NCBI GenBank assembly: GCA_964016885.1
Contig: OZ024741.1
Span: 135,098,001 to 135,162,000, forward strand
DNA: 64,000 bases
Direction of reading: 5' to 3'
DNA from: Eledone cirrhosa
Taxonomy: Eukaryota
Each line of letters starts with the position of its first letter. The stretch's first letter is position 1. The notes beneath the pieces are model-generated. The model was given only the letters and a program-made list of their open reading frames with translations. It had not been told where the DNA came from and searched no databases. Positions 5,521 through 41,570 of the stretch are shown here, piece by piece. The position numbers were made by a program, and so were the translations under genes.

Positions 5521-6241
5521 CCAATAATAAACAACTGCGTTAGAAAGTTATCTTAAAAGCAAATAAGTTGACTTCACCGAATGTCAAAACATAATTAATT
5601 ATATTTGAAACAAACAGTACTAATGCTGTCAAACAGTTAGACTTTATTCATTTTAGAAATGTTGTCCTAAGCCTCCAGTCTTACTAATATTATTGGTCAC
5701 TTGTGGAACATTTTCTATGTTTAGTAGACTAACGTTATTTAGTTCTCTTCAGAAATATATTCGACAGAAAACTTGGAAATTTATGGAACCAAACCAATTG
5801 CAATTAGTCTGTACGACTAATTAACTGTAAAATAAAATTAGATAATTCCTCTAAGGAAGGTATAAAGGAAATAAAATTTATGTGACACAGCAAAATTATT
5901 CTAAATAGCAAGTAACCAAAACAAAAGATCATATTTAGTCTTCGTCTTCATGAAACAAGTCTGAAAATACATACCAATTAAGTTTCACAATTTTGAACTT
6001 GGAAGCAACAACTTAACAAAATGATTCAACATAAACAACTAAAACAATTTCTATTTTCAACACGTCCTCAATCATAATAGTTTCAAAGTTTCTGTTTAAA
6101 ACTATCCAATAATTTACACTCGGCAATACTAATTTAAAGTTTTATAGATTTCGTTTAAAACACCTTTCATCTACAAACATTTCTGAATAAGATATTGTGA
6201 AGAAAACTAACATATTTGTGTAAAATTAGCATAATTTAATA

Positions 6242-28105: not shown

Positions 28106-28157
28106 GCAAGCAAGCAAGCCAGCCAGCTGTGTCTGTCTATTTATCTATCTATCTATC

Positions 28158-31100
28158 TCGAAGAAGATAGACGTGTTTTTGTTTCGTTCCTGCATTTTGT
28201 CGGAATTTATTACGAGAAGCGGTAGGTTTGTTTAAGCTACTTGTTATTTGTTGTGTTTAATTCCTCGCCTGGGACTGCAGACGTTGGGTAAAATAAATTT
28301 CGCCCCTTTTTGGGGCGAAATTTGATAGTCATAAGTTATCGATAAAAAGTCGTTTAGTGACAATGGACGCCATTAACACGACCCATGCCACGCCCCCAAG
28401 GAAAGTGATAGAGAGAAGGTAGCAGCCCAACGCTGTAAGCCTTCACTCCTCACTCCCGCAAATTCAAAAGAAAAAATTGTGGAAATGAGTGAAAACCCCA
28501 AAAGTAACAATTACACAAACAAGAACAACAATGACAATAACAACACAACCACCAACAGCAACAATGACAATAACAACACAACCAACAACAGCAATAATAA
28601 CAACACCAACAAAGGAAAAATGCAAGCCAACACGAATAACAACAACAACAATGATAACAACACGAAAGAAAACGGACCTACAGCTGCAGTCTCCTTCGCA
28701 CAGGCGGTCCGAGAAACGCAGACATACAAGGCACTGGACATCTCTAATGCCAAGAAATTGCTGAAAGAAGCAAAGAATTGTGTAAGTTTCGGGAAGAAAT
28801 TAGAAGGGACAGAATCCTCAGGACTGTAATTTTTAGGACAGTTTCGAACGCGACTAGGAAACCGGCTCAATTGTCCCAAAGCGAAATTGAGCTGGTCTTA
28901 AGTAGTGCCTAGAAGGATATCGCTTTCATACAGAAAGGGAAACTGTATGGAAGCATATCTGTTTTAATGCAAGATGAATTGGTGGCACGGAAATATTCTG
29001 TATCGCCAATTGTATCCAAAGCATACACCTTTTACCCCCACATATTTGGGGAAAAGAACTCAAAAGATAAGAATCTCGGGCATCAGGTCAAATGTGAGCA
29101 TTTGGTAGGTGCTAACGGGTTTCTTAGAAGATGAGGACACAATCCTTTCGATAGGCGAATCCACCGGGGGCGTATTCGGCGGCAATAGCCTTGAAGTTCT
29201 GGTCCAAATGAGACCAGAACGGATAGCAAGAATACCGCAGCGTGTGTCCCTGGATGAAGTCGCCTTCATAAACATTTCTGTTGAGGGCAGGCGGCCTTCA
29301 TGCTACCACTGTTCAAGAAGTGGTCACCTGAGAGCTTCCTGTCCCCTTCTAAATGCCTCCCAAGACGCTTCTGCCCACCCACACACAACAACACAACCAC
29401 CACCACCACCACCACAACAACCACAACAACACAAGACATTGTCCCACCCAACCCCTCCCCACCTAAAACAAATACAAAAGAAACCACAACAAAACCCCCA
29501 AATATACCCCTCCCCAACAACACGGACGAGGACCCCTTATCAACGTCACCCAGTGACGGCGAGGGAGAACCCTTTCAACCGGTAAAAAGAAAGAAAAGAA
29601 GGCACCACATCAACAAAAATACAACAAACACACAGCCACCAGCACAAACAGAACAAAAATCACAAACAAAAAAACCCACCCCTCCCGAAAACATAACACA
29701 TACTACAAAACGCAAACACACACAAGAACAACAAACAAAAACAAACACAACAAAAACAGTATACATACATCAACACAAACAACAAAACACTTGTGCTAAC
29801 AATAGACAAAGACCCTTCGGTGGAAACCGAAGGGAAAATGTTCACCAACGCGGCGACTAAACCGCATTTAAAAATGATTAGGGTCCCAAGGGACACCTAC
29901 GCAATGCTCAAACAGAATTTTCCCGAGGACGTGGTGAACCCCTGTACTAGACCTAGCAACCACGTCCTCTTGAAATGTTTCAACACCACCACCCCAGACA
30001 CCCCTCCCCCACCAAACACCCCCACCCTACCACACACTGATATCCCCACCACATCCCAAACCACCACCCCACCAAACAACCCCGCCGACATCCCAATGGA
30101 AATTGTGCAGCCTGGTCCCCAGGAGAAGGACAGGTAGGTGTCTTTTCCTTTTTCTCCACTCCAAACTCTTCACCACCAAAATGGCTGTTATAAGAGTTGG
30201 ATGTTTAAATGTGCGCGGCCTGGGGATGTCCTGGAAGCAGGGCAAACTCTTAAATGACCTCAGGTTGCACAGAATGGATGTGATAGCTATTTGCGAGTCC
30301 AGGATCAGCAGCGAGCACCAACTGGCCCCCATCTTCGACGACTTTGCGATCTATGCATCTCTGTCAGCCGGAGGGTGGGGGCGGGATGGTCGTTCTGCTG
30401 CGAAACACCGGGGCCTCGCAACACGGAGGGTACACCTGGACCCGGAGGGCCAACTGGTGGTTCTAGACGTCGGCAGTAGTGAAGGTGGAACCTTCAGGCT
30501 GGTGGCAGCGTATGCCCCATCTGGGACACCGCGACCGGACTTCTTCCAGCGCCTAGAGACCTTTCTGGGAACGTCTCGCTCCTTTCTTTTAGTGGGGGAC
30601 TGGAATAGTATCCTGGATGCACGTTGGACTATGTAGGGGCATGTCCCGATAGAGGAGGGTGTAACAGCCTCAAACGATTAATCGGCCGATTTGATCTGGC
30701 CGATAGATATCGACTAGATTTTCCGACTGTGCCACTGTGGACGTGGACTAATCTTAGCGGAACATCTAGGTCGTACCTAGATAGGTTCCTAGTTAGAAAT
30801 AAGGATAGGGACATATTAAGCTGTCCACGAATGTTCATGGTTAACTATTCGGATCACAAGTTGGTGACCGGAGTGGTCAATCTTGATAGAACCCATAGAC
30901 AAGGACCGGTTACTGGAAGCTAAACTTGTCCTTACCGACAAACAAAGCTTACAGTAAGCGGATTAGCACTCTAGTTAAGCATCGGTTGACGGGGGCAATT
31001 GTCAACAGCAGGTGGCGGGGCTCTCTCACGAGAATAATTAGAGTAGAGTCGATAGGTTCTAATCAGGAATTAGCATCAGATAGGAATAGAATTGAAAGGG

Positions 31101-33631
31101 AATTGATAGATAGAGTAGAAGAGGCGATTAGGAGTGGCAACGTGGCCAGCGTGCTGGCGTCAAGCACAGCCCTAGACCAGTTCTTTGACGCGAAGCACGA
31201 GGGCTGCGTTGTCAAGAGTAAAATACGTGCTCTGGGTAACGAGGGAGCCAAAGCTGTTAGCTGGGCTCGAGTGACAGAGGAAAAAAGTGGAAACAAGTCC
31301 ACGATTCGGTCTTTGAAGGACCAGGATGGACGCGTGATCCTTGAACCTGAACGGATGTGCGCGGCCTTTCAACGGCGCTTTGCACGACTGTCCGGGAGGG
31401 GCGGCGGGCCGAGTGAGGCCATGGATTTCGGACCATACCTCGACGGTCTGCCGCGGCTCTCGGACGGGGAGGCGAAGTCCTGCGAAAGGCCGATTTCAGC
31501 CGCTGAGATAGGGGAAGCGCTGAGCCAATGCGGCAAACGCAAATCTCCGGGTCTCGATGGTCTTCCATACGAACTTTATGTAGCGATGCCAGACTTGTTC
31601 TCCAATCTCCTCGAGGCGGTCTACTGCAACTGGCAACAGAACGGGAGAATTCCCAGTTCTGTGAGCAAGGGCGTAGTCACGCTGGTGAGGAAGGACGAGA
31701 ACAAGGGGGATGACATAGATAACTTCAGGCCCATAACTCTACTAAACACAGAGTTAAAGATTTTGGCCAAGGTGTTAGCGAAGAGGTTGGCGCTTGTCGT
31801 CGGGAACCTGGTGGGAGAAGCGCAGACATGCGCAATCCCGTCCAGGTCCATACACAACAACCTCCACCTCATGCGATACATTGTAGAGAGGGTAGGGAAC
31901 GAACCCGGCTTTGGTGGGGCCCTGATCAACTTGGATCAATCTAAGGCGTTCGATAGGGTCGACCATCGGTACCTGGATGCGGAAGTTGGAGCTGCGGAAG
32001 TTGGAGCTGTTGCAGGGAATCCTCTTGAAACCTGGATTGCGGAAAGCGGTGTCGGCCTACGCCGATGACGTGACAGTAATGGTGTCGTGCGCCTCAGAAA
32101 TCGGGCAGATCGGCACCTTACTGGAGGAATACGAAAGGTTTACAGGAGCCAAGCTGAACCGGGACAAGTCCGTCGGTTTGCAACTCGGAACGTGGAGAGG
32201 CAAACCGATGCCCTCCGACGGCGTCGTCGGATGCTGGACGGAGGGACCGGTGAAGCTTCTCGGGGTCTGGTGGAGAAAAACTGGGACGAGGTAACGGGCA
32301 GGGTGTTTGCACTCGCTCAGAAGTGGGCGGAGTGCAAACTATCCCTGAAAGGTCGAGCGGAGGTGGCGAACACTTATATAGCGTCCGTCATCTACTACCG
32401 CTTGACCATCGTGCCTTGCCCAGCGAAAACGCTCGCCAAAATGGAGCGCGCGCTCTTCCGATTCCTTTGGAAGAAGCGGGCCCCTTTGGTGAGAAGATCC
32501 ATCTGCTGGCAATACCCTTCGAACGGAGGGCTGGGGATGCCGTGGCTGACGATGCGTAATCTAGCATTAAGGCTATGGTACCTCGAGGTATTCCTCACCG
32601 ATCAGCCGGTGTGAACCCCTTTTGTGAGGCGAGCCTTTCCGAGACTCGTCTCACTCACCGAGCTGCAATCCTGGGTCAAGCAAAGACCGAGAAAAATGGG
32701 CGACTGCACATTGGATGTGCCCAGGCGCTCACAGCCCTCTGGCAAGCGGATCCAGCAATCAGTGGAGACTCAACCTCAACATTCTATAGAGGGTTGGTGC
32801 GCAGCAAGTGCGACGACGCTTTCGGGGAGGCTCTGGGCATGGAGAAGGACCAGCTAGCCAGTCTGTTCGGTAGGACGCTTGGCCCAAGACCGATGGACAA
32901 CTTCTAAAAGTCCCTGGGTGGCAGGACAAGCTCTACAGACACGGGCGCCCGGGTAGGGACGCCTCGAAGAAGATCTGTCCGAGATGCGTGCGTGACGAGG
33001 AAACCGTCGCGCACGCATTCGTACACTGCCCGGGCGTTGCTGACCTGTGGGGCTATGTGGAACGACTACTCTCGCGGGTGGGACCAATCCGGTTGACCAC
33101 CGAGTACATTGTCACGATCAAACCGCCTCCCCCCTTCAAAAACGAAGGAGAGGCGGTTTTCCTCTGTGTGATAGCTATGGCGAAAGAGGTTTATGGTGGA
33201 CGAGGTTGAAAGGGCTGAGGTCAGACACTTTTATCTCCGGCCAACAACTGGTCCTTTTTTTCAAGTACCATTTTAGAAGAAGGATCAGAATAGAGAGAGA
33301 GGTGCTCTACCCCAGCAAGTTTTATGAAAGGTGGGTGAAAGTGGCGAGAATGGCCCGAGTGAATGGGCCTTCTCTCTATATCAGCGTGTAGGTGAGAGAG
33401 GAGAAGAAAGAGGAGAGGAAGGGAGCCCCCGCTCTTTGTGCTCCTGAGGAGGAGGGTTGTACATTTTTTTCGTGGGTGCGTGCGACCCACGTCAACGCCC
33501 CCTCCCTATTGAGAAACTTCGATTGTTGAATTTTATTTGTTATATGTTTTTACACGTCCTTTGAAATGTATGTAAACTCCCCCTTGTATTTGTTCCAATC
33601 TTTGATGCCCTGGTGGCAAATAAATAGAAAG
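28158..33631 (+). mobile_element. Tx1-clade (L1 group) non-LTR retrotransposon, copy 1, near full length but decayed
   Basis: ORF1 ~28363-30137 with CCHC knuckle CYHCSRSGHLRASC. ORF2 ~30181-33391: APE (CLNVRGL, GDWN, SYLDRF, SDH), RT (KSPGLDG, NFRPITLLN, AYADD) and C-terminal CPRC..E..H..C. Many stops/frameshifts and an RT deletion near 31980. Confidence 0.95.
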
Positions 33632-33881
33632 TTATCTATCTATCTATCTATCTATCTATCTTCGTCTGTTCTACAGTGTGGATGTCATTCACTTCGCACA
33701 GAAGTTTTGTTCAAATTTATTGAGGAAATTTTGTGAGTTCAAACTTAATTTTGATACAATTGTGTAGCTTGACCCTCCGTCTGAACTGTCAGGCGGTGGG
33801 TCAGCTCATCTTTACCCCTCCTAGAGGTGAAAAACCTGTTTTAAAAAATTTTGTGTAAAAAATTTCAATCGTCTAACAGAA

Positions 33882-35781
33882 ATGTTAAACGCAACGAACG
33901 AAAATAGTGGTGGGGGGACAGCGGTAAGAGTTGTAAGCTCGCACGCTTTAGTCCCCCCTTACTTCCCAACTAACGTCATAGAGAAGGAAGGAAAAATTGA
34001 AATAAAAACAGACGAATCTGCGGAGAAAAAAAATGACGAAAACACAAATCTGGACATGGATTCCAACAACGAAAAAAAAAAAATTTGAAAAATTGCATGA
34101 CAATACTAATAACACAAACAAAGACACAACAAACACAAAAATAACATTTGAAAATAACACCATATCAGAAAGCAAAGCAGACGACAAGATTTCATTTGCA
34201 CAGAAAACAAAGAAATCTTTGACTTATATAGCGGAAAATATTTCAGATGTGGCACGAAGGATCACAGACGCCAAACAATACATAAGTGAAGGAGAGAATG
34301 GTATTTTATCGGTAAAAATGCCTCAAGAATTCACCAAAGACATTGAAAGCCGAACGGTCAAGTTTCGGACCATCAACAACAGTACAAAAAAACCTGAACA
34401 GCCTTCTCAAGCAGATATCAAAACAGTACTCACAGAAGTACTTAATGAAACCACTTTCATAAGAAAAGACAGACTGTATGGAAGCCTAGCAATTATCATG
34501 AAGAACCAATCGGCGGCAAAAAAATGTGCTTTGTCACCGATTCGTTCGAAAAATTTCACCTTTTATCCATATTATATGGGGAAAAGAACTCAACGCATAT
34601 GGCTGGATGCAATGATGCCAGATGTGGACTACTGCTGGCTCATAGCTGGCTTCATCGATCCAGTGAATGACAACGTGATTTCCATTGGGAAAACCACAGG
34701 CAATGCGTTCAGTGGAACAGGTATAGAGCTGGTAGTGCAAATGAAGCCTGAACGCATCGCCCAAATACCCGACAGAATCCTATTAGAGGACCACGGGTAT
34801 ATAAACATTAGCGTGGAGGGGAGAAGGCCGTCCTGCCATATCTGTGCAGGCAGAGGGCACCTGAAGGCCGCTTGTCCTCAACTCAACAAAAAGAAAACCC
34901 TGCTACCAACACCAGCTCCACCACCACCACCACAACAGATAAACAAACAACAAAACTCAGTCCCACCCAACCCGTCCCTCAGTAAAACCACAACACCACC
35001 ACAACACAAACAGTCACAACACATTACCCCAAAACAAAATACAGGCCCACCCAACCTCTCACTCAATAAAACAACACAACCACCGCAGACACAACACACA
35101 ACACAGTCTAACATAGTGACATCCATCTCCCCCACAAAGAAAACCAACACGGAAACATTACCAGCAAACATACCTCTTCCCTCCAACACTGAAGATAACC
35201 CAACGAATTTGGAGGAAGAAACGGAGTCCTTCAGACAGATTAAAAGGAAAGAAAGAAAACATGTACAAAACACACAAGGCCAAACAACCCCCACCCAAAT
35301 GTCAACACAATCCAACAAAACAGAAAACACCCCTCCAGCAACAAACAAAACCAAACCTGCCCCTCCCCTCTTCGAAACACTCACACCATCCGAAAAAAAG
35401 ACATTACACTATACTTACATCAACAGAAACAATAATAAATTAAATGAACTCATATACAATAATCCTTCGGTACAAACCGAAGGTGTAAACTTTGTTTCTT
35501 CGGAAAACTACCCACATTTAAAACTAATAAAGATCCCAATGAACCTCTACCAAAAACTAAAAAAGGATTTTAAGGAGGACGTAGGACCACCCTCTGTCAA
35601 ACCCATAAACCGCGTCCTACTAAAAAGCTTTCCCCCTCCCCTTCCCCTCCCCAACACAACTCCAAACACCCCAACCCCACCACACACTGACGACCCCACA
35701 CCACCACAAGACACCCCTTCACCCAACACCCCCGACCCCATGGAAGTCGTGCAACCCGAACTCCGGGAAGCGGAAAGGTAG
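33882..35781 (+). CDS. Tx1 ORF1 (gag-like nucleic-acid-binding protein); probable frameshift in the A-run at ~34072-34083
   Basis: 582-aa open segment with CHICAGRGHLKAAC knuckle and P/T/Q-rich C-half. Upstream ATG at 33882 is in another frame. Homologous to copy 1 ORF1. Confidence 0.8.
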
Positions 35782-35814
35782 GTCTCTACACTCTCCTTTG
35801 GCTCTGCCGCCCAC

Positions 35815-38800
35815 ATGGATGTGTTAAGAGTAGGATGTTTGAATGCACGTGGCCTGGGCTCAACTTGGAAGCAAGCAAAGCTTCTAAATGACCTCAGGTC
35901 ATGTAGTATAAATGTAATGGTTATCTGTGAGACTCGAATCAGCGTCGTGCGGCAGCTGGCCCCCACCTTCGATGACTTTGAGGTGCATGCATCTCTCTGT
36001 CAACCTGGAGGTGGGGGTGGGGTTGTCGTACTGCTGCAAAAACACCTGGGTCTTGCCGTACAGGTTGTGCACTCGGACCCGGAGGGTCGTTTGTTGGTGC
36101 TAGACGTTGGCAGTAGTGAAAGTGCGGCCTTGAGACTGGTCGCCGTCTACTCCCCTTTCGGAGCTGAACGGCCCGACTTCTTCCAGCGTTTGGAGACTTT
36201 TCTGGGAACGTCGCGTTCCCTGCTTCTAGCGGGGGATTGGAATGACATCCTAGATGCACGTTGGGACTATGCAGGAGCATGTCCTAATAGAGGGGGGTGT
36301 AACAGCCTCAAGGGGTTACTCGACCGTTTTAACTTGGTCGATAGATATCGACTAGATTTTCCAACTGTGCCTACCTGGACTTGGAGAAACCACAGTGGTC
36401 AATCTAGATCGTACTTAGATAGATTCTTAGTTAGAAGTAAGGATAGGGACATATTAAGCTGTCCAGAAATGCGCACGGTTGGCTACACGGACCACAAATT
36501 AGTGACCTGCGTAGTCAATCTCGAGAAAACACATAAACAGGGTCCCGGTTATTGGAAACTTAATTTATCTTTACCGGCAAAAGAGACTTACAGAAACCGG
36601 ATTAGCAGATTAGTTAAGGAGAGGTTGACGGGTGCAATCGTCAACAACCGATGGTGGGCATCTCTCAAAAGAGAGATTAGAACAGAATCAATAAGTTATA
36701 GCAAGATGTTAGCTGCCGATAGGAATAGAAACGAGAAAGAATTAACAGGTAAATTAGAAGAGGCAATCAAGAGCGAAGATGTGGCCAGAGTGCTGGCATC
36801 GAGGACGGCCTTGAACCAGTTTTTCGATGCAAAGCACGAAGGCTGCGTCATTCGAAGTAAAATACGTGCTCTAGGTAATGAGGGGGCCAAAGCCGTTGGC
36901 TGGGCCCGCGTGACAGAAGCTAAGAGTGGAAATCGATCCACCATCCGGTCGTTGCAAGACGAAGATGGACGGGTGATCCGGGAGCCTAAGCAGATGTGCG
37001 AGGCCTTTCAAAGGCACTTTACCCGATTGTTCGGGGAAGGAGAGGGTCCGGGCGGGGGCGTGGATTTCGGTCCATACCTCGACGGCCTGCCGCGTCTCTC
37101 GAGCGAAGAGGCAGAGTCCTGCGAGGGACCAATTTCGGCTGATGAGATCGGAGATGCGCTGAGCTAATGCAGCAGACGCAAATCTCCAGGTCTCGATGGT
37201 ATACCTTACGAACTTTATTTAGCAATGCCGGTCTTCTTCTCCGAACTCCTCGAAGCGGTCTACTGCAATTGGCAGCAGAACGGGAGAATTCCTTGTTCTG
37301 TAGCCAAGGGCGTAGTCATGCTGGTGAGGAAGGACGAGAACAAGGGGGATAGTATAAATAATTTTCGGCCCATAACCCTGCTAAACACAGAGTTAAAGAT
37401 TTTGGCCAAGGTGTTAGCAAAGAGGTTGGCGCTTGTCGTGGGTGGCCTGGTGGGAGATGCGCAGACATGTGCTATCCCATCCAGGTCCATTCACGATAAC
37501 CTCCACCTCATGCGATACATCATAGAGAGGGTTGGCAACAAACCCGGCTTCGGTGGGGCCCTGATCAACTTGGATCAGTCTAAGGCCTTCGATAGAGTCG
37601 ACCATGGTTACCTGGATGCGGTGCTAGCGGCGGCTGGGTTCGGTCCTGTTTTCAGAGGCTGGATAACTGCCTTACATAGCAACCACATCTGTTCTAGGAT
37701 CAAGGTGAACGGCTACCTTTCGAAGCCGTTCGAAATCACACAATCCATTCGACAGGGGTGCCCTCTCTCCTCCCTTCTGTACGTATTGACTCTCGAGCCT
37801 TTACTAAGGAAGTTGGAGTTGTTGAAGGGTATCCCCCTGGAACCAGGATTGAGCAAAGCGGTGTCGGCCTACGCCGATGACGTAACAGTAATGGTATCGA
37901 CCGACTCGGAGATCGAGGCGATCGGTACCTTACTGGAGGAGTACGAAAGGTTGTCAGGAGCGAAACTGAACCGGGAAAAATCCATCGGGCTGCAACTCGG
38001 AACGTGAAGAGGCAGACCGATGCCTCCTGACGGTGTCGTCGGACACTGGACGGAGGGCCCGGTAAAGTTGCTTGGGTCTGGTTTGGACCGGACCTCCAGG
38101 TGGAAAAAAACTGGAACGAGGTTACGAACAAGGTGTTTGCACTAACCCAGAAATGGGCCAAGTGTAAGCTGTCCCTAAAAGGCCGGGCGGAGGTGGCGAA
38201 CATTTACATAGCGTCCGTCACTTACTACCGCCTGACTGTCGTGCCTTGCCCTAAGGAAACACTCACCACCATGGAACGCATGCTCTTCCAATTTCTTTGG
38301 AAGAAGCGCCCTCCTATGGTGAGAAGATCCATCTGCTGCCAACAACCTTCGAAAGGAGGGCTGGGGATGCCGTGGTTGATGATGCGTAGGCACGCATTAA
38401 GGCTACGGCACCTACAGGTATTCCTCACTGGTCAACCGGTGTGGGCTCCGTTCGTGAAACGAGCCTTTCCGAGACTCGTCTCGCTCACCGAGCTACAGTC
38501 CTGGGTCAAGCAAAGATCCGGAAAACTGGGAGACTGGCACACTGAGTGTGCTCAGGCGCTCAGGGCTCTCTGGCAAGCGGGCCAGGCCATCGGTGGAGAA
38601 TCCACCTCATCATTCTATAGAGGGCTGGTGGCTAGCAGGGGCGATGACACCCTTGGAGAGTCGCTGGACATGGAAGAAGACGAACTGGCCAGCCTGTTCG
38701 GTAGGACTTTCGGCCCAGGACCAATGGACAACTTCCAGAAGTCACTGGCCTGGCAGTGCTACCGGGGGGCTCTACCCGTTCGAGAGAGGCTCTACAGACA

Positions 38801-39251
38801 CGGGGGCCCGGGCAGGGATCCCTCAAAAAAGATTTGCCCTAGATGCGTGCGTCACGAAGAAACCGTTGCGCACGCATTGGTGCAATGTCCGGGCGTGGCT
38901 GATCTGTGGGGCTACGCCGAACGACTGCTGTCGCGGGTGGCGCCGATTAAATTGACCGCCGAGTCCGTGATGACAATCAAACCGCCTCCCCTCTTCACAA
39001 AGGAAGCAAAGGCGGTTTTTCTGTGCGTAATAGCCATGTTGAAAGAGGTTGTTTGGTGGACACGATTGAAAGCTCTGAGGTCAGGCAACTTCCTCTCTGG
39101 CCATAGTCTGGTCTACTTCTTCCGATATCACTTCGGAAGAAGGATAAGAATGGAGAGAGAGGTGCTTGGCCACAGGCAGTTTTATGAAAGGTGGGTGATA
39201 GTGGCGAGAATGGCTCGTGTAAATGGGCCTTCTCTGTATACCATCCTGTAG
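35815..39251 (+). pseudogene. Tx1 ORF2 (APE endonuclease-reverse transcriptase-Cys/His domain) with 2 nonsense codons and a frameshift
   Basis: CLNARGL, GDWN, TDH, GPGYWKLN, IRQGCPLS, AYADD, CPRCVRHEETVAHALVQC. TAA at 37165, TGA at 38005, frame change at ~38075. Confidence 0.93.
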
Positions 39252-39492
39252 GTAAAGAAGTAAAGGAGAAGGGAGCACCTTCTCCATGTGCTCCCTGGGC
39301 AAAGGATTGCACACTTTTTCGGGGGTGTGTGCAACCCCCATCACGTCCCCTCCTTTTTGAGGTTATTTTCGATTGTTTTCATGTTACACCCTTTTTACTC
39401 GATTATATGTAAACTCCCCCTTTGTATTTGTCCCTTCTTTTTATGCCTTTATGGTAAATAAAGAAATCTATCTATCTATCTATCTATCTATC

Positions 39493-39530
39493 ATGTTCCA
39501 TTTCTTGTGCGCCCTTGTAGTAAATAAAGA
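39493..39530 (+). mobile_element. Third, extremely 5'-truncated Tx1 3' end
   Basis: tgttccatttcttgtgcgcccttgtagtaaataaaga resembles the 3' termini of copies 1 and 2 and is flanked by TATC-like sequence. Confidence 0.6.
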
Positions 39531-39699
39531 TATATATCTATGTAAGAATCAGCTTTTCTGTCCAACATGTTATATTTAAAACATGCTCCAGTTTGATCAT
39601 TTTTATTATGAATTCTTAGTTCTTTATGCTTAGTTTGTAAGTAGTGTGCCTTAGTCCATGTGTGTATTAACGTTTCGAAGCCTTCATGAATCAATCTTT

Positions 39700-39965: not shown

Positions 39966-40077
39966 ATAAAAACCATAAATTAATCTTCCCTCGTAATATT
40001 CGGTAGTGAAGTCAGGTCATTAAACAGCATAGACTCGGATGCTGCCGTAGACTATAGACTAAAATAACACAAAAAAT

Positions 40078-41570
40078 CTTCTTCTTCTTCTTCTTCTTCT
40101 TCTTCTTCTTCTTCTTCTTCTTCTTCTTCTTCTTCTTCTTCTTCTTCTTCTTCTTCTTCTTCTTCTTCTTCTTCTTCTTCTTCTTCTTCTTCTTCTTCTT
40201 CTTCAAACGGTCCTTGGGCCAGAGTCCCCAAACACGCCTTCCAGCGGGATCTATTAGAAGCAACCATCTCCAACTGATCCGGCTGGATCCCCAAGCGGGA
40301 CCAGCCAAGCTCATGGATATTATCCAACATTCTTGTTCGGGGTTTACCCATGGGTCTCCTGCCATTCGGTTTTGCCCGCACAGCGATTCTTTAACCATAT
40401 CCCCATAATATCAGATTTGTGATCTCTTAATTCGGAGTAGTGTCTCTAACTGGAGTGACTCTCTGATCTATGAGCTACGCACTCTATCAAGTAACGTTAC
40501 TCAAAAGACCTTTCGGAGCAATCCCATTTCGGCCGCTTCTATTCATGATCGTATTCTTTCGGTCATTACTCAAGATTCATAACCATAGGTAAGGGTTGGC
40601 ACGAAACTGAATTGAAGGTAGAGAGTTTGGCTTTTACATCTTCTGATTACTGAATGTTGATGCTGGTACATTACTGCACCAGTTCCTGCAATTCTTGCTC
40701 TTAATACAGCCTCCTGCCTTTCATCCTTAGTGAACACAGCTCCGAGATACTTGAACTTCTCTATTTGCTTCAGTCGAACTCCATTCATATGTAGAGTGCA
40801 CTGCGCAGGCTTCCTGAAGAGAACGACTTTCTCAGTTTTCACAGCACTGATTTTCATTCCAGCCATGCAGCATTTAGCATCAGACCTATCAAGTGCAAGT
40901 AGGAGATCATCTTCTGTCGAGTTAAGTAACAGCATGTCACCTGCAAATTCAAGCCGACTGATTTTACACCCACCAGTCATGATACCATCCCGGATGCGCA
41001 TGTCAACCCTGTTCATGAAAATAATTGTTTCTACTATTTGGCACAAGGCCAGCAATTACCCAGTGCATTACTGGTACTTTATTTTATCGACCCCGTAAGC
41101 ATGAAAGGCAAAGTTAACCTCGGCGGGATTTGAACCCAGAATGGCAAGGGCCGTAACTCTATGCGTCAAAGCATGGCGTCCGACCCTCTACCGATACTGC
41201 CAATCCACCGCCAAATCCTGTTCATGAAAATAATGAACAGGAGAAGTCACGGTACACACATTTAGCGAAGTCCGACTCCCACATTGAATAGTTTCAATCT
41301 AGCACCATTTAAACGAACACAAATACTCGGGCATTCGCATAAAGACATCAGAGCAGCGAGAAGCTGACCATCGATCTCATGCTTCTGCACAACCTTCTAC
41401 AGAAGGTCCGGCGAAATGCGGTCATATGCCTTTTCGAGATTTACAAAACAAGAATATACCTCTTGGCAATCTCGGAGATCTGCTGCAGTGTGAATATTTA
41501 GTCGGCTGCACTGCGTCCGGAACGAAAACTGCACTGTTCATCCGCTAGCTTGGACTCGACAATCCCCCCG
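40078..41570 (-). mobile_element. RTE-clade LINE 3' portion (decayed RT) with long (GAA)n tail
   Basis: FVNLEKAYDRI, LEFAGDMLLL, GMKISAVKTE, FKYLG, PTLTYGYES, RRPMGKPRTRMLD. (GAA)n tail at 40078-40204. Confidence 0.9.
41026..41216 (-). mobile_element. SINE family 1 inserted in the RTE
   Basis: 18-bp TSD cctgttcatgaaaataat at 41008 and 41217. Near-identical to 44932-45111. Confidence 0.9.

Follow-up and report, generated by a model that had tools for sequence, protein, structure and literature searches.

Tx1-like long interspersed nuclear elements (LINEs) that probably target (TATC)n microsatellites in the genome of Eledone cirrhosa

Why should three related retrotransposon ends lie one behind another, in the same orientation, with a run of the tetranucleotide TATC at every joint? 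This question is raised by a stretch of the genome of the cephalopod Eledone cirrhosa (assembly GCA_964016885.1, contig OZ024741.1, positions 135,098,001 to 135,162,000 of the forward strand), in which two LINE copies, referred to here as copies A and B, are followed by a short 3' stub. The whole 64-kb stretch is called the window, and coordinates are those within it; the genome searched comprises 3.0 Gb, and fetched loci are labelled by L numbers. Repeat-targeting elements of the Tx1 clade have been known since 2004. In our opinion, it is very likely that A, B and the stub are three separate insertions of Tx1-like families sitting one-way in TATC repeats, likely as the GATA strand is nicked by their apurinic/apyrimidinic endonuclease (APE) and reverse transcription is primed from this nick.

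The locus and its families

On the plus strand, the locus begins with a (TATC)4 array (28142–28157, with degenerate units reaching to about 28132) at the 5' junction of copy A, a full-span but decayed LINE of the older family A (28158–33632), and continues with (TATC)7 (33633–33660), the presumed target of A at its 3' side and of B at its 5' side. Then follow copy B, a near full-length LINE of the young family B (33661–39468), a perfect (TATC)6 repeat as the 3' target of B (39469–39492), a 42-bp 3' stub of a third related family (39493–39534) and, in the sequence behind it, TATCTAT (39535–39541) as a target remnant. A first-pass annotation had described two full-length copies and a stub, head-to-tail and in one orientation, with TATC-like repeat at all junctions, and this description stands with small corrections, among them the length of the stub, which was given as 38 bp. 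The stub ends in AATAAA plus 6 nt and matches 3' ends of the third family at 89–93% among the fetched loci. The 3' end of copy B was set at 39468, as the element itself encodes the two bases that follow GAAA; the first 8–10 nt of the family head are missing or altered in this copy. In the whole window there are five runs of three or more TATC/GATA units, three of which are the LINE junctions, and the commonest repeats are (TA)n and (CA)n.

Both copies encode APE, reverse transcriptase (RT) and a zinc-binding region (Pfam Exo_endo_phos, RVT_1 and zf-RVT), and neither is intact. Open reading frame 2 (ORF2) of copy A (30181–33391) lies in eight pieces and has lost about 180 bp of the RT near 31982–31992, where a 15-bp direct duplication (31978–32009) is seen. 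In copy B, ORF1 (33882–35781; 626 aa in intact copies) bears a frameshift near 34043–34072, and ORF2 (35815–39251; 1145 aa in intact copies) contains two stops (37165–37167 and 38005–38007) and a frameshift near 38073. From 35815 on, the APE domain of this copy is open with its motifs kept, so that the repair proposed for it in the first-pass annotation is unnecessary. The ORF1 of the Tx1 clade carries a CCHC zinc knuckle; that of copy A gave a zf-CCHC match with E 0.0025, below the Pfam cut-off, and that of copy B gave no Pfam match, with a CX2CX4HX4C pattern visible. From the end of ORF1 through ORF2 and the 3' untranslated region (UTR), A and B are 76–77% identical, and the rest of ORF1 is patchy and barely alignable; a recent tandem duplication was therefore rejected, in agreement with the earlier annotation.

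Judging by sequence, family B is young. It has 551 exact heads and at least 1445 3' ends genome-wide, the pairwise identity of 34 fetched full-length copies and the window copy is 98.2–99.97%, with the top value between unlinked copies, and both ORFs are kept in 12 of the 36 B copies having both ends; the window copy is 98.9% identical to its nearest fetched relative. Family A is older, its copies being decayed and about 90% alike, as copy A is to another A copy. One more family, D, was found as the flank of a B copy and possesses its own 5' UTR and ORF1 start (L311–L340, L361–L380, L411–L430); the repeat behind L131, first taken for a host repeat, is the head of this family. Its 3'-end pattern has 644 matches, among them those of a related subfamily (about 82%); identity to the D reference copy exceeds 99.5% in many D copies. 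The 3' ends of the fetched loci make up 12 clusters, with 24 singletons besides.

Some observations on the history of these families can be added. In L414, L421 and L422, the 3' part of D is combined with a different 5' segment of 360 nt, which suggests replacement of the 5' UTR. A 46-nt piece resembling ORF2 of family A lies between a TATC array and a truncated B copy in L177 (about 6100–6148), suggesting a template switch between families.

Target or tail: the evidence of the junctions

CTATCT was found within 20 nt upstream of 236 of the 265 full-length B heads on the minus strand genome-wide (89%; this strand was used, each site being counted once there), and it occurs at 0.56–0.66% of the window positions outside the elements. 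In best-match sets of full-length copies, a TATC repeat is present within 40 nt 5' of the head in 29/29 B, 27/28 A (one A row was not parsed) and 30/30 D copies, and the GATA orientation was met with in none of 29 B 5' flanks. TATC follows 263 of the 282 distinct 3' ends of the fetched loci, and poly(A) follows none of them, as was claimed earlier for the ends after AATAAA in the window. The first-pass annotation had proposed a (GATA)n-targeting family that hit one site repeatedly, and had named TATC confined to 3' ends with random 5' flanks as the contrary outcome. The 5' flanks are rich in TATC instead, and targeting is upheld by them together with the duplications of B described below; the single family has given way to several. 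Part of the 5' TATC in A and D is probably borne by the elements themselves, and targeting by these two families is therefore not proved by the 5' flanks alone.

Among 59 B copies with both ends, 30 are informative, that is, contain non-repeat bases in the target-site duplication (TSD). The TSD measures 15–22 bp in 25 of these (19–20 bp, the mode, in 15), starts with TAT in all 30 and is directly preceded by TATC in 26. Such TSDs were also found in six of seven informative truncated B copies, with more in a second set, and the repeat is therefore not merely part of the head. The second set, 20 B copies chosen for short or odd 3' flanks, gave eight TSDs of 13–20 bp, four shorter ones and eight copies with none. 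Even minimal targets of 0–2 repeat units were used and duplicated together with unique flank (L163, L164, L433, L438, L443). No bias of insertion to the 3' end of arrays was detected, with a median of 4.5 units upstream and 4 downstream (n = 44, p = 0.12).

At deviating targets (TATA, TCTC), the 3' flank of B follows the target; four B 3' flanks start with TATA, exactly like their 5' copies, and in 5 of the 30 informative cases target and 3' junction do not agree in the two bases preceding TAT. Since the 3' flanks follow target variants, the 3' repeat is target and not tail, and the RNA can have supplied one repeat base at most. The 3' end of B, which joins at TATC|TAT without poly(A), thus has its junction at TATC|TATC or one base further.

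These junctions bear directly on the idea that TATC is an element-encoded tail (and head) of elements inserted at random, with arrays grown by later slippage and stacks made by recombination. Such a tail would agree with the truncated copies that have TATC only on the 3' side (8/27 in B, 7/10 in A) and with the heads of A and D, which probably carry TATC, and some same-family tandems with identical junctions may be recombination products. The TSDs of B, however, even those of truncated copies, hold repeat together with unique flank on either side, and the stacks mix families that are only 76–82% identical; for B the idea is already largely refuted, and as a whole we regard it as very improbable. 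Even less credible is random insertion followed by selection that spares only copies in microsatellites. Older copies could have been filtered in this manner, but one repeat among many commoner ones, one orientation and one phase are left unexplained, and the same pattern is seen in copies that are 99.9% identical.

Stacking is common, 28 of 87 heads lying directly behind the 3' end of another family member. Tandem B copies, three of them at 5.8 kb spacing, were noticed on G000:C1 near 348.92 Mb (L019–L021) and at 168.11 Mb (L054, L055); those near 348.92 Mb share one junction and possibly arose by unequal recombination. A palindromic repeat of a few hundred bases, similar to miniature inverted-repeat transposable elements and with ends beside TATC arrays, has been hit repeatedly by these LINEs (L131, L150, L159, L162, upstream of the arrays).

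Nicking, pairing and two kinds of 5' joint

In the mechanism that we prefer, the APE would nick the GATA strand at GATA/GATA or one base over, at GAT/AGAT, this nick would prime reverse transcription, and a second nick would be made about 20 nt away, consistent with the 15–22 bp duplicated and the at most one repeat base added at the junctions of B. Repeat would be left on both sides of each insertion, so that next copies could land beside older ones and head-to-tail stacks would grow. At the window locus, A and the stub would have been inserted first, and the younger B would later have entered the array between them.

Another way to reach the same sites is pairing of RNA with DNA, where a read-through RNA ending in (UAUC)n pairs with nicked (GATA)n and the endonuclease is only loosely selective, for example for T/A steps. 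AATAAA lies a few bases from the end of the elements, yet no poly(A) is inserted, and therefore transcripts may run into the repeat; some copies sit at sites with little repeat, and a cut at a T/A step of the bottom strand is conceivable both for the TATC families and for a related group on (ATT)n, described below. Against such guidance, no repeat units are added at the 3' ends of B, the TSD remains 15–22 bp whatever the number of units, the 3' flanks track target variants from the second base on, and TATC stands upstream of the junction in 26/30 copies, although these bases are not needed by 3' read-through. We therefore consider it unlikely that pairing sets the target, and it may assist targeting.

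The families differ in their 5' joints, which were compared in full-length copies with a 3' repeat run of at most 14 nt. Non-repeat flank is duplicated in 20 of 25 B copies versus 1 of 20 in D and 1 of 10 in A, and the head abuts TATC in phase in none of the 25 B copies, in all 20 of D and in 8 of 10 of A (Fisher p 2e-8, in three families only and in sets selected for short arrays). The D copy L426, with a TSD of 21 bp and 11 nt of extra repeat behind it, and the truncated A copy L191, with an imperfect TSD of about 16 bp, show that these families, too, are able to make long TSDs. According to the simplest reading of the in-phase joints, the RNAs of A and D would start in the upstream TATC repeat, the end of the cDNA would pair with the repeat of the target, with loss of the non-repeat portion of the duplication; the RNA of B, having no such leader, would keep the whole duplication and gain a few extra bases. 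This leader, deduced from DNA junctions, seems to us rather probable. The alternative for A and D is a repeat-specific second nick.

Several facts weigh against targeting by the endonuclease or against its details. There is no TSD of 8 bp or longer in 11 of the 59 B copies with both ends, and neither a TSD nor 5' TATC is present in 8/27 truncated B and 7/10 truncated A copies, which may represent target deletions, later rearrangements or off-target events; for the four B cases checked, the fetched DNA upstream contained no match to the TSD seed. About 11% of the minus-strand B heads are without CTATCT within 20 nt, and some ends sit in (TA)n or (TC)n. An empty allele of the window locus was not found in public runs, the contigs of which break at the arrays, and two pattern searches for empty paralogues found none. 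The leader model draws on three families, and the members of one family are no independent cases; among the B rows, L159 is a tandem, and the D copies and the second B set had been selected for their short 3' arrays. On the other hand, the L164 target is reached in contigs of public runs from sequence resembling the flank, with the element absent, at an agreement of 0.74; these are probably empty paralogues. The specificity for TATC is a strong preference and not an absolute one.

Relatives, known systems and meaning

The ORF2 layout, with N-terminal APE, RT and a C-terminal zinc-binding region, is that of the L1-group retrotransposons without long terminal repeats. The best match among solved structures is human L1 ORF2p (E 3e-50, 174 bits, residues 8–855), and the match to R2 covers the RT only (E 2e-20). 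The separate ORF1 (626 aa in intact B), 5' truncation and TSDs also place the elements in the L1 group. In RT trees, A, B and D group with LINEs that abut U2 small nuclear RNA (snRNA) sequence and with unnamed relatives (FastTree 0.92 with 91 sequences, UFBoot 100 in a reduced tree); the trees are anchored by proxies, not by Repbase or named L1-clade or Tx1 sequences. The U2-abutting APE-type LINEs (L234, L242, L243), which resemble the element Keno by flank only, gave 392–465 bits. These scores and groupings favour membership in Tx1. Protein searches returned no named Tx1 record, and the sole eukaryote-named relatives were hypothetical proteins of Argonauta hians, the nearest with 65% in the RT. 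Metagenome relatives are distant, mostly 24–34%, and no TATC arrays were found at 19 of them that were checked. Metagenome LINEs abutting U2, 5S or U1 RNA sequence were noticed (L234, L242, L243, L252, L268), and U2-like sequence also lies upstream of ORF2 in L231, L237, L243 and L244.

Outside the LINEs of the locus, the window contains a (TCT)43 array (40077–40204) and then a minus-strand open frame (40012–40410), perhaps the 3' terminus of a further LINE.

In flanking DNA, three 3' ends followed by (ATT)n led to a related group on a different repeat (L431, L170, L451–L470). Its 3'-end pattern has 9128 matches, which may include short non-autonomous elements, and ATT follows nearly all of the first 100 matches listed. 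Among 20 fetched loci, both ORFs are open in one (L467), a TSD of 17 bp flanks one truncated copy, and ATT arrays adjoin several distinct full-length heads. In the APE, the ATT group is 59–60% identical to B, compared with 77–80% for three of four D copies and 72–73% for two of three A copies; among the differences are the loop that follows GDWN and the hairpin preceding YLDR. The tree unites A, B and D in one clade (UFBoot 98), without a firm place for the ATT group among the close relatives. A B junction one base further would correspond to a T/A step of the GATA strand, in agreement with the junction of the ATT group.

In cited work, a family is regarded as repeat-specific when more than 20% of its flanks lie in one repeat type (PMC4494074); the values found are 89% for B genome-wide, 27/28 for A and 30/30 for D. 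Tx1 elements are described there on (TC)n (Kibi) and (TTC)n (Koshi) in teleosts and on (TTCC)n/(TTTC)n in crocodilians (the Tx1-1_Crp group), and all of them have in common with our families that they are APE-type LINEs of the L1 group preferring a microsatellite. Here, the target is (TATC)n and none of those repeats, the host is a cephalopod, and a sister group occupies (ATT)n. In Xenopus, the Tx1L endonuclease is reported to be sequence-specific, and Keno is a Tx1 element specific for U2 snRNA (PMC1919474, PMC4494074). The nearest anchored relatives of A, B and D abut the same U2 sequence, with the scores given above against 174 bits for human L1 ORF2p, but the target differs, and these anchors, which are not named records, were recognized as Keno-like from their flanks.

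That the endonuclease determines the target is established for Tx1L, TRAS1, SART1 and R1Bm (PMC1919474) and was also reported for related elements (PMC4640811). TRAS1 and SART1, of the R1 clade, are APE-type LINEs in which the endonuclease sets a simple-repeat target and a domain swap changes it (PMC1919474); they differ in belonging to another clade and using telomeric repeats. Uniform 5' junctions are described in R2 when its RNA carries upstream 28S sequence, and variable ones when it does not (PMC3774820), which mirrors A/D versus B; annealing of the cDNA to the target has been postulated there for the elements with uniform junctions. R2, however, has a restriction-like endonuclease, a ribosomal DNA target and a ribozyme, and the leader proposed here is read from DNA junctions only. 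The portion of PMC13586686 used adds nothing on 5' annealing. In Octopus vulgaris, recently active L1-Tx1 elements are reported to comprise 13 families and 421 insertions (PMC13282606; PMC8967140); the word 'target' is absent from the main text of the former, and the passages used of the latter name none. No LINE targeting TATC/GATA was met with in searches of the literature, made largely at the level of listings, and Repbase Reports, the paper of 2004 or supplements may contain one.

Summarizing the comparison of the families, we tentatively propose, as a plausible but not yet probable picture, an active radiation of octopod Tx1-like LINEs that has divided between the targets (TATC)n and (ATT)n, the endonucleases being 60% identical, and in whose TATC branch B would have lost a repeat-derived RNA leader and passed from homology-guided to homology-free 5' joining.

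With these families, (GATA)n would be added as a target to the short list of microsatellite-seeking LINEs. Many GATA microsatellite loci of this genome lie at the ends of LINEs, a point of importance in designing markers and annotating repeats. In Eledone cirrhosa there are hundreds of young, full-length copies, in many of which both ORFs are open; the cut site is readable, a close sister group uses another repeat, and thus target switching in APE endonucleases and the role of an RNA leader in 5' joining become directly testable. If the proposed picture is true, intact TATC and ATT copies would be a natural pair for studying how an APE reads a repeat and how the way of 5' joining is chosen.

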